A stretch of DNA of 64,000 bases from Escherichia coli (lineage in GTDB: Bacteria > Pseudomonadota > Gammaproteobacteria > Enterobacterales > Enterobacteriaceae), in assembly GCF_024223415.1 (NCBI RefSeq), contig NZ_CP100500.1. One strand, written 5' to 3'. A program made the position numbers and the translations under genes. Below the pieces are notes generated by a model. The model searched no databases. It saw only the letters and a program-made list of their open reading frames with translations, and was not told the DNA's origin. Shown piece after piece: positions 39,855 to 42,398 of this stretch (position 1 is the stretch's first letter; each line of letters opens with the position of its first letter).

Positions 39855-39864
39855 TCTCTCTACG

Positions 39865-39892
39865 CCCTCACCCGTACAGGGTGAGGGTTGTT
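39865..39892 (+). terminator. terminator hairpin after aroP
   Basis: ccctcaccc-gtaca-gggtgaggg perfect 9 bp stem then TTGTT. Confidence 0.45.
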
Positions 39893-40012
39893 ACCTGCCT
39901 CACACTTTTCCGTGCAAAGAGATTTTATCCATATCAGCGGCGTTATCCTGCAACGCAATTTATCCATAGCGAGCGAATAATTATCCTCATCACTTGATGG
40001 GGAGTCTTCTCT

Positions 40013-41419
40013 ATGAATAGCAGTAAATTATCAGTAAGAGAAAAGATCGGCTACGGGATGGGCGACGCAGGATGCAACATCATCTTTGGCGCTATCATGC
40101 TGTTTGTTAACTATTTTTATACGGATATTTTTGGTCTGGCCCCGGCACTCGTTGGCGTATTACTGCTCTCTGTACGGGTTATCGATGCCGTCACTGACCC
40201 TATTATGGGGGCCATTGCCGACCGCACCCAAAGCAAATATGGTCGTTTTCGCCCCTGGCTATTGTGGATTGCCTTCCCCTACGCGCTATTCAGCATCCTG
40301 ATGTTTACCACGCCAGAATGGAGCTATAGCAGCAAGGTTATCTATGCCTTTGTTACCTATTTCCTGCTCTCCCTGACCTATACCGCCATTAACATTCCTT
40401 ACTGCTCGTTAGGTGGCGTGATTACTAATGACCCACAAGAGCGCGTGGCCTGCCAGTCGTACCGTTTTGTGATGGTGGGCATCGCTACCCTTCTGCTCTC
40501 GCTGACGCTATTGCCGATGGTGGATCTATTTGGCGGCGGCGACAAAGCGAAAGGGTATCAGCTGGCTATGACCGTGCTGGCAATCATCGGTATGTGTATG
40601 TTTTTGTTCTGTTTCGCCACGGTTCGTGAGCGCATTCGCCCGGCGGTACAAACCCATGACGACATGAAGAACGATTTTAAAGATGTCTGGAAAAACGATC
40701 AGTGGGTGCGCATTCTGCTGCTCACCTTGTGCAACGTCTGCCCTGGATTTATCCGCATGGCGGCAACCATGTACTATGTCACCTGGGTAATGGGTGAGAG
40801 TACTCAGTTTGCAACCCTCTTTATTAGCCTCGGCGTTGTCGGAATGATGATCGGCAGTATGTTGGCGAAAGTGTTAACCGACCGCTGGTGCAAACTGAAA
40901 GTCTTTTTCTGGACCAACATCGCGCTGGCAATTTTCTCCTGCGCCTTTTATTTCTTTAATCCGCACGCCACGGTGATGATTGTGGTGCTCTACTTCCTGC
41001 TCAACGTTCTGCACCAGATCCCCTCCCCGCTGCACTGGTCGCTGATGGCAGACGTCGACGACTACGGCGAATGGAAAACCGGTAAACGCATCACCGGCAT
41101 CAGCTTCTCCGGTAACCTTTTCTTCCTCAAACTGGGCCTGGCCATTGCCGGGGCGATGGTGGGCTTTCTGCTCTCATGGTACGGCTACGATGCCGGTGCG
41201 AAAGCCCAAAGTGCCACGGCGATTAACGGTATTGTACTGCTCTTTACCGTCATTCCTGGGGTGGGCTATCTGATTACCGCAGGCGTCGTCCGCCTACTGA
41301 AAGTAGACCGCGAACTGATGAAACGCATCCAGACCGATCTGGAAAAACGTCGCACCAATTACCGCGAACTGAATGACTATCAGGAAATAAACGCTGTAGA
41401 AACAGTAAGGAAAGCCTAA
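40013..41419 (+). CDS. MFS transporter, glycoside-pentoside-hexuronide (GPH):cation symporter family
   Basis: 468 aa, 12 TM; GPH signatures GYGMGD and DxxTDPIMGxIADRT...GRFRPW; stop overlaps start of next gene (TAATG). Confidence 0.8.
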   Translation: MNSSKLSVREKIGYGMGDAGCNIIFGAIMLFVNYFYTDIFGLAPALVGVLLLSVRVIDAVTDPIMGAIADRTQSKYGRFRPWLLWIAFPYALFSILMFTTPEWSYSSKVIYAFVTYFLLSLTYTAINIPYCSLGGVITNDPQERVACQSYRFVMVGIATLLLSLTLLPMVDLFGGGDKAKGYQLAMTVLAIIGMCMFLFCFATVRERIRPAVQTHDDMKNDFKDVWKNDQWVRILLLTLCNVCPGFIRMAATMYYVTWVMGESTQFATLFISLGVVGMMIGSMLAKVLTDRWCKLKVFFWTNIALAIFSCAFYFFNPHATVMIVVLYFLLNVLHQIPSPLHWSLMADVDDYGEWKTGKRITGISFSGNLFFLKLGLAIAGAMVGFLLSWYGYDAGAKAQSATAINGIVLLFTVIPGVGYLITAGVVRLLKVDRELMKRIQTDLEKRRTNYRELNDYQEINAVETVRKA

Positions 41420-42369
41420 TGCAAGACTGGCCGAATCCATTTATCGAGCAACGCGCCGATCCCTTTATACTGCGCGATGGCAACCACTATTATTTTATCG
41501 CCTCGGTGCCGGAGTACGACCGGCTGGAAATTCGCCGGGCAGACTCGCTCGTCGGGCTGCGCAGCGCCACGCCTGTCGTGGTGTGGCGTAAACCGCAAAG
41601 CGGCCCCATGAGCGAACTTATCTGGGCGCCGGAGCTGCATCATATTGCAGGTCGGTGGTATATCTATTTTGCCGCCACCCATACTCAGGCGCTCGACAAA
41701 CTGGGGATGTTTCAGCACCGGATGTTTGCCCTTGAATGTTGTGATGCCGATCCGCTCAGCGGAACGTGGATTGAAAAAGGACAAGTTAAAACACCATTTG
41801 ATACTTTTGCCCTGGATGCCACCACTTTTCACCATCAGGGTAAACAGTGGTATTTGTGGGCGCAAAAAGCACCGGATATCGCCGGGAACTCCAATATTTA
41901 CCTGGCCGAAATGGAAAATCCGTGGACGATCAAAGGCGAGCCGGTGATGTTGAGCAAACCGGAGTATGACTGGGAATGTCGCGGATTCTGGGTCAATGAA
42001 GGTCCGGCTGTCGTGATGCATGGCGAGCGGTTATTCATCAGCTACTCAGCCAGCGCTACCGACGAGAACTACTGCATGGGGTTATTGTGGATAGACATCG
42101 ACGCTGACCCGAGAGTGCCTGAGAACTGGCATAAATCGCCGCGTCCGGTCTTTTCGACCAGCTATGAAAATCGCCAGTATGGCCCCGGACATAACAGTTT
42201 TACCCAAACGCCCGAGGGTGAGGATGTGCTGGTCTACCACGCACGTAATTACACCGAAATAGAAGGCGATCCACTGTACGATCCTAATCGCCATACGCGC
42301 TTAAAATTGATTCGCTGGGATGAAAGTGGGATGCCTGACTTTGGCATCCCTCCTGCGGAGACTTACTGA
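41419..42369 (+). CDS. glycoside hydrolase family 43 protein (putative beta-xylosidase / alpha-L-arabinofuranosidase)
   Basis: 316 aa cytoplasmic (no signal peptide); N-terminal ADPFIL motif with catalytic-base Asp typical of GH43 five-bladed propeller; translationally coupled to the upstream transporter. Confidence 0.75.
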   Translation: MQDWPNPFIEQRADPFILRDGNHYYFIASVPEYDRLEIRRADSLVGLRSATPVVVWRKPQSGPMSELIWAPELHHIAGRWYIYFAATHTQALDKLGMFQHRMFALECCDADPLSGTWIEKGQVKTPFDTFALDATTFHHQGKQWYLWAQKAPDIAGNSNIYLAEMENPWTIKGEPVMLSKPEYDWECRGFWVNEGPAVVMHGERLFISYSASATDENYCMGLLWIDIDADPRVPENWHKSPRPVFSTSYENRQYGPGHNSFTQTPEGEDVLVYHARNYTEIEGDPLYDPNRHTRLKLIRWDESGMPDFGIPPAETY

Positions 42370-42375
42370 TTACAA

Positions 42376-42398
42376 TGCCCGGTGTATATCGCCGGGCA
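42376..42398. terminator. hairpin in 29 bp convergent gap between GH43 gene and ampE
   Basis: tgcccgg-tgtatatcg-ccgggca stem-loop. Confidence 0.4.

Follow-up and report, generated by a model that had tools for sequence, protein, structure and literature searches.

An Escherichia counterpart of the Salmonella araT–araU operon lies between aroP and ampE in a minority of E. coli genomes

The araT–araU operon of Salmonella enterica (STM0149–STM0148 in LT2; STM14_0178–STM14_0177 in 14028s) is composed of two genes located between aroP and ampE. The protein STM0148 has been described as a GH43 arabinofuranosidase, the single one in Salmonella, that is required for gut expansion on arabinose-containing diets, the arabinose being liberated from polysaccharides (Ruddle et al.). 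Both STM14_0177 and STM14_0178 are reported to be arabinose-induced, and araU/STM14_0177 has been listed, with a citation of Stringer et al. (2014), among the arabinose genes upregulated by arabinose. The operon is apparently widespread in Salmonella (an arabinofuranosidase cluster includes thousands of Salmonella sequences), whereas in E. coli its counterpart is a presence/absence polymorphism found in about 1% of genomes. We take STM0148 to be the gene located between aroP and ampE, considering the gene numbering of LT2, the arrangement of the Salmonella locus and the description of a single arabinofuranosidase. The 2014 study of Stringer et al. is reportedly the primary paper on AraC binding.

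The window analysed here, a stretch of 64,000 nucleotides from the E. coli contig NZ_CP100500.1 (assembly GCF_024223415.1), contains two genes in the same order at the same place, within an aroP–ampE gap of 2,544 bp (39855–42398; Table 1). They encode a glycoside-pentoside-hexuronide (GPH) symporter and a cytoplasmic GH43 hydrolase, 91% and 88% identical, respectively, to the Salmonella transporter and hydrolase, and the layout of their promoter matches that of araT–araU. The coordinates and the gene pair proposed by a previous reading of the sequence alone (hereafter, the sequence-only reading) were all borne out by the rechecked ORFs and by profile searches. The TAA stop codon of the symporter gene (41417–41419) overlaps the ATG of the hydrolase gene (41419–41421) in a TAATG motif, by which the second gene is translationally coupled to the first. 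The pair is very probably the Escherichia copy of an ancestral araT–araU-type operon for arabino-oligosaccharides that was deleted once and then spread by recombination. The finding is thus real but already known, being the E. coli counterpart of a described Salmonella operon deleted in about 99% of E. coli. It provides a specific proposal of function and regulator for two generically annotated E. coli genes, namely AraC/CRP-controlled uptake and exo-hydrolysis of arabino-oligosaccharides.

Table 1. Positions of genes and putative regulatory elements around the aroP–ampE gap (numbering of the window)
Feature	Position	Strand	Description
aroP ORF	38481–39854		upstream neighbour of the GPH gene
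aroP terminator hairpin	39864–39888	+	10-bp stem CCCTCACCC-GTAC-AGGGTGAGGG
CRP-like site	39889–39904	+	TGTTACCTGCCTCACA; 9 of 10 half-site bases of the consensus TGTGA-N6-TCACA; predicted
AraC I1-like half-site	39917–39933	+	AAGAGATTTTATCCATA; 13 of 17 matches to araI1 TAGCATTTTTATCCATA; predicted
Conserved block	39935–39957	+	…ATCCTGCAACGCA; position of araI2/-35; presumed second AraC half-site
-10 hexamer	39976–39981	+	AATAAT; probable; good -35 absent
GPH symporter gene	40013–41419	+	468 aa
GH43 hydrolase gene	41419–42369	+	316 aa
Hairpin	42376–42396	.	GCCCGGTG-TATAT-CGCCGGGC; separates the converging stop codons of the GH43 gene and ampE
ampE stop codon	42399–42401	-	convergent with the GH43 gene

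In the K-12 strain BW25113, only 42 bp separate aroP from ampE, which confirms that the pair is absent from K-12, as stated by the sequence-only reading. Homology between the window and BW25113 ends at 39887|39888 and restarts at 42400, so that 2,512 bp of the window correspond to 10 bp in K-12. The sequence-only reading described the module as bracketed by hairpins, and both fold stably. The left one (-21.2 kcal/mol, z = -3.96) is nevertheless identical in K-12, NC101 and O55:H7; it is therefore the aroP terminator, located outside the variable segment, and does not mark a boundary of the module. The right one (-17.7 kcal/mol on the + strand, z = -4.4; -18.6 kcal/mol on the - strand, z = -3.5) is kept in E1V33 and E. 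whittamii and is probably a transcript-end structure common to the GH43 gene and ampE; it has no U-tract and was not called by the terminator scan.

The region upstream of the symporter gene resembles the araBAD promoter (P_BAD). Between the CRP site and the ATG, the two sequences align with about 63–66% identity (z = 4–8 versus shuffled sequences), and the order of elements (CRP site, I1, I2/-35, -10) is the same. The CRP-like site occupies the position of the araBAD CRP site and belongs to the best-conserved part of an alignment of 74 non-redundant orthologous promoters. In the same alignment the -10 hexamer is near-invariant, with a few promoters reading AATACT. The distance from the start of TCACA to the start of this hexamer is 76 nt in the six orthologous promoters measured, equal to that leading to the -10 TACTGT of araBAD, while the I1 box lies 12 nt from the CRP half-site instead of 13 nt in P_BAD. 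The I1-like half-site reads AAGCGATTTTATCCATA in other E. coli (14 of 17 matches to araI1) and TAGCcATTTtATCCATA in the family consensus (15 of 17), the araI1 reference having been checked in the E. coli araC–araB spacer. An araI1-like 17-mer with at most three mismatches was found at the orthologous place in 27 of 73 loci, with no occurrence elsewhere in 873 kb. The following block, highly conserved between genera, resembles araI2 (AGCGG-N6-CCTG) with an ambiguous register, 18 or 21 bp from I1; it is presumed to be the second AraC half-site, although the I2 of P_BAD itself is poorly matched by this region. Compared with the Salmonella promoter, the E. coli one has a more degenerate I1-like box and an extra TTTATCCATAG motif (39959–39969).

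A scan for the sigma-70 consensus upstream of the symporter gene detected no canonical promoter, which, together with the weak -35, fits an activator-dependent promoter. Given its collinearity with the araBAD upstream region (CRP site, I1-like box and spacing), the operon is likely controlled by AraC and CRP, acting as distal regulators. Both an upstream half-site and a P_BAD-like geometry, as expected of a member of the AraC regulon, are present, and AraC is predicted to bind this promoter in E. coli. The sequence-only reading left the choice between constitutive expression and a distal regulator; the AraC and CRP sites, and the arabinose induction reported for the Salmonella orthologues, sharpen this towards the second option. 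A side reading would regard the entire stretch of cis-regulatory DNA, CRP site through leader, as a paralogue of P_BAD. A candidate hairpin in the leader (39984–40003, flagged as terminator-like), which would mask the Shine-Dalgarno sequence, was rejected, as RNAalifold predicted no consensus pairs among 28 diverse leaders.

The I1-like site matches araI1 less well in the window than in other E. coli because of a private C→A substitution at 39920, which alters a conserved position in the A-box of I1 and is absent from the 53 other carriers. The window also harbours a private in-frame stop at codon 62 of ampE (Q62*, 43068–43070), a feature missed by the sequence-only reading. These two mutations would be expected if the operon were decaying or silent in this strain, with relaxed selection on the locus. 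Such a decay is unlikely, however, since both module ORFs are intact and carry no coding change relative to the closest genome, from which the window differs by only 4 SNPs in 14.5 kb, and since dN/dS between species is 0.02–0.07.

The variability between strains suspected by the sequence-only reading was confirmed: of 5,426 complete E. coli genomes, 53 carry the module, each time in one chromosomal copy with 99.3% identity or more. Within E. coli, it diverges by 0.12–0.28%, versus 0.8–2.5% for its flanks, and is found in at least four local backbones. The flank alleles are mosaic among carriers, which differ in their aroP, ampE, ampD and nadC alleles, one of them having an adjoining T6SS islet. 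In addition, E1V33, which belongs to a distinct Escherichia species, is 99.5–100% identical to the window over positions ~39600–42600 and only 87–93% identical beyond 42800. One could imagine that the carriers kept the ancestral genes throughout, by long vertical inheritance and without recombinational spread. The module is indeed Escherichia-like, and in the comparison with E. whittamii its dS (0.47–0.49) is of the same order as that of ampE and ampD (0.33). We nevertheless consider this scenario improbable: module diversity among carriers is 5–10 times below that of the flanking core genes, even though the module evolves no slower between species, and long retention agrees poorly with the different flank alleles of the carriers, with the T6SS islet next to one of them and with the essentially identical copy of E1V33.

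The low diversity of the module relative to its flanks argues instead for a rare allele that evidently moved among backgrounds by homologous recombination. Near-identical copies would have been transferred through recombination in aroP and ampE, and at least one further Escherichia lineage (E1V33) would have taken part in this exchange. The locus neatly illustrates the spread of a presence/absence allele by homologous recombination. We tentatively suggest, as a possibility somewhat short of an even chance, that the module, rather than a passive relic, is a recently expanding allele restoring an ancestral AraC-controlled pathway for arabino-oligosaccharides, which crosses E. coli backgrounds and the species boundary with E1V33 and may be favoured by arabinan-rich host diets, much as STM0148 aids the gut expansion of Salmonella. 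As gut colonisation by Salmonella on fibre-containing diets is influenced by its orthologue, carriage of the module may give ~1% of E. coli a small advantage in a nutritional niche. The divergent flanks were also considered as a simple introgression tract, K-12 differing from the window by 8–9% within ~400 bp to the left and to the right of the indel. This was ruled out, because the module-less O55:H7 has the aroP 3′ allele of the window and most carriers have the ampE allele of K-12; the divergence of the flanks therefore corresponds to mosaic polymorphism and not to a fixed tract.

The hydrolase matches the Pfam family PF04616 over residues 5–306 (model positions 2–288 of 288, E = 1.3e-79). 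Its best matches in the PDB are 5M8B, 5M8E, 3K1U, 9NXJ/9NXG and 3AKF (352–428 bits, E = 1e-104 to 1e-127), the next-best GH43 structure after this subfamily-26 set reaching only E = 1e-15. The protein is about 60% identical to single-domain exo-α-1,5-arabinofuranosidases of subfamily GH43_26 from lactic acid bacteria. It shares the five-bladed-propeller GH43 domain and the catalytic triad with LbAraf43 (5M8B), WAraf43 (5M8E), SaAraf43A (3AKF–3AKI) and AtAbf43C (9NXG/9NXH/9NXJ); 3AKF/3AKH and AtAbf43C have been placed in GH43_26 (PMC12493170). Its residues D14, D133 and E194 fall in the same alignment columns as D168, D283 and E344 of AtAbf43C, which have been verified by mutagenesis (PMC12493170). 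The triad on which the sequence-only reading had staked its GH43 assignment is thus complete, with the general-base Asp, the pKa-modulator Asp and the general-acid Glu. SaAraf43A and AtAbf43C carry a CBM42 domain and a signal peptide, in contrast to the E. coli protein, which has neither and must therefore work intracellularly on imported oligosaccharides; its catalytic Asp, already at residue 14, leaves no space for a signal peptide. Every GH43_26 enzyme characterised uses α-1,5 arabino-oligosaccharides or arabinan as substrate, and not arabinoxylo-oligosaccharides (PMC12493170). From this uniform activity, the protein is assigned, at the level of its sequence, as a cytoplasmic exo-α-1,5-L-arabinofuranosidase of the GH43 subfamily-26 type, with arabino-oligosaccharides rather than xylo-oligosaccharides as predicted substrate.

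The profile matches of the symporter (Pfam MFS_2, E = 1.9e-97; TIGR00792 gph, 424.8 bits versus a cut-off of 231.35) and its approximately 12 hydrophobic segments place it, as judged from the amino acid sequence, in the GPH:cation symporter family (TC 2.A.2). It has the GPH/MFS_2 fold of MelB, with which it aligns over residues 6–446 (about 440 residues). The acidic cation-site residues in helix II of MelB are Asp55 and Asp59. They correspond to Asp58 and Asp62 of the symporter, and the position of Arg52 is kept as well, whereas MelB Asn58 is replaced by Thr61 and the sugar-site residues Lys18/Asp19 by Cys/Asn. With the models for MelB, GusB, YagG and PRK11462, the symporter does not reach the equivalog or subfamily cut-off. 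With its partner enzyme as the guide to substrate, it is a predicted importer of α-1,5-arabino-oligosaccharides.

The sequence-only reading had proposed xylo- or arabino-oligosaccharides as substrates. The identity to GH43_26 enzymes upholds the second part of this proposal and tells against the first. A system for xylo-oligosaccharides or aryl-xylosides of the YagG/YagH or XynT/XynB type could be suspected from the many database entries that label the protein "GH43 family beta-xylosidase", and from the YagG subfamily being the second-best NCBIfam match of the symporter. We regard it as very improbable, since the YagG model (NF007237) gives 480.6 bits against a cut-off of 610, since the nearest solved or characterised relatives of the hydrolase are subfamily-26 α-L-arabinofuranosidases devoid of arabinoxylo-oligosaccharide activity, and since the promoter resembles that of araBAD and arabinose induces the Salmonella genes.

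For an arabino-oligosaccharide system, the following scheme can be proposed. Other gut microbes probably release short α-1,5-linked arabino-oligosaccharides from plant arabinan, which the GPH cation symporter would take up and from which the cytoplasmic GH43_26-type enzyme would cut arabinose units at the non-reducing end. The freed L-arabinose would be both a substrate for AraBAD and the activator of AraC, and AraC and cAMP-CRP would turn on the araBAD-like promoter of the operon, creating a positive feedback under catabolite control. We note that a cytoplasmic exo-enzyme could not directly free arabinose from polysaccharides, in contrast with the description given by Ruddle et al.

The gene order pdhR–aroP–GPH–GH43–ampE–ampD is found in about 75 other species of Enterobacteriaceae, and the pair is present between aroP and ampE in nearly all genera sampled (Salmonella, Citrobacter, Enterobacter, Klebsiella, Kluyvera, Kosakonia and others). 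Its dS values relative to Salmonella (1.08 for the GPH gene and 1.74 for the GH43 gene) are similar to those of the flanking genes (1.05 for aroP and 1.73 for ampE). The E. coli module is nearest to that of E. whittamii (about 90% nucleotide identity) and 76–85% identical to those of Salmonella and Citrobacter, mirroring its flanks. K-12, NC101, O55:H7 and two metagenomic contigs, all devoid of the module, have exactly the same junction, GGGTGAGGG-CAATAATCTT-TACACC. Contigs retrieved through the AmpE protein were exclusively E. coli-like and showed the junction of K-12. The synteny across the family, the flank-like dS and this common junction indicate that the module is ancestral and that K-12 has suffered a deletion, and not, as the sequence-only reading had it, that the module is an insertion. 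The absence of a gene pair from K-12 thus need not reveal an insertion, the reference strain being here in the derived, deleted state.

None of the hallmarks of a genomic island (mobility genes, direct repeats, atypical composition) was found at the locus, whose position is conserved across the family. In agreement with the sequence-only reading, no integrase, transposase or IS element was detected among the ORFs, and the search for target-site duplications and terminal repeats at the boundaries yielded only chance-level matches of 10–15 nt. The comparison of GC content that it had suggested revealed no anomaly, the module (0.46–0.55) being flank-like. That the module is a recent accessory islet, gained horizontally from outside Escherichia into a core neighbourhood, is therefore hardly credible, despite its presence in only ~1% of complete E. 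coli genomes, its absence from K-12 and its near-identical copies across backgrounds, since both genes keep their place and orientation throughout the family, the closest relative is E. whittamii with identities to Salmonella and Citrobacter as low as those of the flanks, integrase, IS, repeats and GC anomaly are all absent, and the hairpin of the left boundary is present in K-12 too.

Within E. coli, the deletion is shown to be a single early event: the operon would have been lost once early in the lineage, and K-12 would display that state. The gene is also absent from representative genomes of E. albertii, E. fergusonii, E. marmotae and E. ruysiae. Finally, the 10-mer at the K-12 junction, (GG)CAATAATCTT, matches exactly the -10 region of araT in two Kluyvera species; this match may be due to chance, or the 10-mer could be a relic of the promoter.

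The gap between aroP and ampE contains the two overlapping genes described in the sequence-only reading, encoding a GPH symporter and a GH43 protein and hereafter called the module (see the table of positions). The pair is indeed missing from K-12: in the alignment, 10 bp stand there in place of 2,512 bp of the window (39888-42399), and 42 bp separate aroP from ampE (BW25113). In agreement with the earlier description of its surroundings, no integrase or IS element was detected among the window ORFs at the module, and a repeat search found nothing meaningful at its ends. No atypical base composition was seen, its GC being native when compared with the flanks. 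Both hairpins said to bracket the module fold strongly (z about −4 each), but the left one (39864-39888) is also found in K-12 and is thus the aroP terminator.

Positions of genes and promoter elements at the aroP–ampE locus of the window
Feature	Position	Strand	Remark
aroP	38481-39854	+	ORF
CRP-like site TGTTAcCTgCcTCACA	39889-39904	+	conserved across genera
Spacer between CRP-like and I1-like sites			12 nt
AraC I1-like half-site TAGCcATTTtATCCATA	39917-39933	+	window version AAGAGATTTTATCCATA; conserved across genera
ATCCTGCAACGCA block	3′ of I1-like site	+	conserved across genera
AATAAT, probable −10 box	39976-39981	+	conserved across genera
GPH symporter gene	40013-41419	+	ORF, 468 aa
GPH stop/GH43 start overlap	41417-41421	+	TAATG
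GH43 gene	41419-42369	+	ORF, 316 aa
ampE end	42399	−	convergent with GH43 gene

The closest homologue outside E. coli is that of Salmonella enterica (88%), and the order pdhR–aroP–GPH–GH43–ampE–ampD is found in Salmonella and Citrobacter. With one genome scanned per species, relatives at 81-100% identity were found in 80 species, belonging to Citrobacter, Salmonella, Enterobacter, Klebsiella, Raoultella, Kluyvera, Kosakonia, Leclercia, Lelliottia, Pluralibacter, Yokenella, Trabulsiella and other genera; tblastn with the window flanking proteins showed this gene order to be conserved in essentially all, the one exception being a Gallibacterium. The dS values against Salmonella are 1.08 (GPH) and 1.74 (GH43), compared with 1.05, 1.73 and 1.77 for the flanking aroP, ampE and ampD; against E. 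whittamii they are 0.49 (GPH) and 0.47 (GH43), with 0.33 for both ampE and ampD, and dN/dS is 0.02-0.07. Family-wide synteny, flank-like dS and native GC argue that the pair is ancestral at this site and that the K-12 arrangement is a deletion, against the first reading of an insertion. An identical junction, GGGTGAGGG-CAATAATCTT-TACACC, is present in module-less K-12, NC101 and O55:H7, which represent three phylogroup backgrounds, and in two metagenomic contigs, pointing to a single deletion event in E. coli. Of the representative genomes of Escherichia species, just two have the GH43 gene: those of E. whittamii (93% aa) and of Escherichia sp. E1V33 (100% aa), a separate lineage. The 10 bp replacing the module in K-12 (12389-12398 of locus L001, (GG)CAATAATCTT) match exactly the module promoter −10 region of two Kluyvera species (L022, L042), and may be either a relic of the deleted operon or a chance match.

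The 316-aa protein consists of a single GH43 domain. Its nearest solved relatives (E 1e-104 to 1e-127, about 60% identity) are the arabinofuranosidases of Lactobacillus brevis (5M8B) and Weissella (5M8E), a Clostridium entry (3K1U), AtAbf43C of Acetivibrio (9NXG/9NXJ) and SaAraf43A of Streptomyces (3AKF). The last two are assigned to subfamily GH43_26, whose ten characterised members are all α-1,5-arabinofuranosidases with arabino-oligosaccharides or arabinan, and not arabinoxylo-oligosaccharides, as substrates (PMC12493170). In the window protein, D14, D133 and E194 align one by one with the triad D168/D283/E344 verified through mutagenesis (PMC12493170), so that the catalytic residues are in place. 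Since the catalytic Asp already lies at residue 14, the protein has no signal peptide and is cytoplasmic, the location first proposed; its substrate then has to enter the cell, and the co-translated symporter presumably brings it in. Of the two substrates first considered, these relatives favour arabino-oligosaccharides over xylo-oligosaccharides.

The 468-aa protein matches Pfam MFS_2 (1.9e-97) and exceeds the curated threshold of the GPH:cation symporter model TIGR00792; it scores under the thresholds of the GusB, MelB, PRK11462 and YagG models, the last having been suggested as a possible relative. In an alignment with MelB spanning 440 residues, the helix-II aspartates are kept in the window symporter, whereas the sugar-site Lys18/Asp19 of MelB are not. 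In-frame 12-bp length variants of the gene occur among E. coli (window about 40986-40997 and about 41390-41400): a deletion inside a hydrophobic segment in FDAARGOS_944 (TGCTCTACTTCC) and a tandem duplication close to the C-terminus in strain 2018-02-2CC (AAACGCTGTAGA).

The 158-bp region upstream of the symporter gene presents a strong footprint of conservation across genera. The araBAD promoter (P_BAD), whose place in the araC–araB spacer was verified in E. coli genomes, has a CRP half-site, araI1 (TAGCATTTTTATCCATA) and a −10 box in the same order as the module promoter, with an equal distance of 76 nt from TCACA to the −10 box. When the two regions were aligned globally from CRP site to ATG (window 39889-40015 versus the araC–araB spacer), identity was about 63-66% with z 4-8 against shuffles, and the similarity takes in TCTCCATACC, around araBAD +1; an ancient duplication of a cis-regulatory module, or constraints common to both regions, could explain this collinearity. 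Within 873 kb of sequence, 17-mers resembling araI1 (≤3 mismatches) are confined to the orthologous position, where 27 of 73 loci have one. The register of a putative second AraC half-site is ambiguous. A consensus scan upstream of the symporter detected no canonical sigma-70 promoter, consistent with dependence on an activator. Of the Salmonella genes, STM14_0177/0178 are reported as 'dramatically induced' by L-arabinose, and araU/STM14_0177 appears among arabinose-upregulated arabinose genes in a passage crediting Stringer et al. (2014). Together with the conserved P_BAD-like sites, this makes control by AraC plus cAMP-CRP likely, sharpening the earlier alternative of constitutive expression or a distal regulator. 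The product arabinose would then induce the operon, giving positive feedback. A second TTTATCCATAG motif (39959-39969), resembling the araI1 B-box, lies in the stretch from the presumed −35 to the −10. E. coli and E1V33 have it, whereas E. whittamii and other genera lack it; it may be an additional AraC contact or have arisen by chance.

The exact module proteins occur on at least 1,000 contigs in public databases, under the PGAP (NCBI) names 'GPH:cation symporter' and 'glycoside hydrolase family 43 protein', and the orthologous Salmonella operon, araT-araU, has already been named and studied; the module is therefore a known system, correctly observed. We take STM0148 to be the GH43 gene of the aroP–ampE locus, partly by LT2 gene numbering, as supported by the Salmonella locus order and by database names in the cluster of that gene, e.g., 'alpha-N-arabinofuranosidase [Salmonella enterica]'. 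STM0148 is the sole GH43 arabinofuranosidase of S. Typhimurium and is needed for mouse-gut expansion only on diets with arabinose polymers. The occurrence of arabinofuranosidases across Citrobacter, Escherichia and Salmonella is compared in a pan-genome paper of 2025. Two points of the first interpretation are corrected, in that K-12 has a deletion and the substrate is arabino- instead of xylo-oligosaccharides, and one is sharpened, AraC with CRP being the probable regulator. The only mildly new aspects are how little the E. coli copies vary and how they spread by recombination.

The module is strain-variable, as first supposed, being carried by 53 of 5,426 complete E. coli genomes, always on the chromosome, in single copy and at ≥99.3% identity. 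Sources of the carriers include humans, poultry, pigs, calf, baboon, wildebeest, goose and mink, as well as a vegetable and wastewater. In one of them, MB56 (NZ_CP073936.1), an IS3-family (ISSen4-like) element within the module splits the transporter annotation, a case of secondary inactivation. AroP, AmpE, AmpD and NadC alleles vary among carriers. Across four distinct backgrounds, pairwise divergence is 0.12-0.28% for the module versus 0.8-2.5% for flanking core DNA, and comparison between species shows no slower evolution of the module, which implies that its copies share a far more recent ancestor than their hosts, probably through homologous recombination in the flanking genes. Divergence between K-12 and the window is raised next to the indel; a fixed tract there was rejected, since module-less O55:H7 has the window aroP 3′ allele and the ampE allele of most carriers is that of K-12, and we interpret this divergence as mosaic polymorphism. 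A 300-bp ampE 3′ allele (42400-42700), 8-10% diverged from K-12 and most other carriers, is common, with 5 differences, to E1V33 and the group formed by the window and AR_0085, the genome nearest to the window. Over about 39600-42600, E1V33 matches the window at 99.5-100% identity, as against 87-93% beyond 42800, where the window resembles K-12, arguing that exchange between species, in either direction, has occurred at this locus. In module-less MSB1_4I and one metagenomic contig (L097), ampE shows 10-15 differences per 100 bp over 42700-43200, yet the deletion junction is identical to that of the others; the gene seems to recombine often and to be highly polymorphic.

The window differs from AR_0085 by four SNPs in 14.5 kb. 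One, C→A at 39920, falls in the AGC box conserved within the I1-like site (AAGCGATTTTATCCATA to AAGAGATTTTATCCATA); all 53 other carriers have C, A being private to the window, and the substitution could weaken arabinose induction in this strain. Another of the four gives the ampE gene, previously treated as intact, an in-frame stop at codon 62 (CAG to TAG, Q62*, 43068-43070, minus strand; + strand base 43070 is A in the window and G in AR_0085), where AR_0085 and K-12 encode Gln. The exact 61-mer around this change is absent from all complete E. coli genomes.

The pdhR–aroP gap is a second variable site, adjoining the aroP–ampE one. In the window (37973-38481) it consists solely of about 540 bp of AT-rich spacer (GC 0.33-0.40). 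A 4-kb islet with T6SS tssD and bacteriocin-immunity/HNH genes occupies this position in FDAARGOS_944, NC101 and MSB1_4I; of the module carriers compared, one has a T6SS tssD/immunity islet there.
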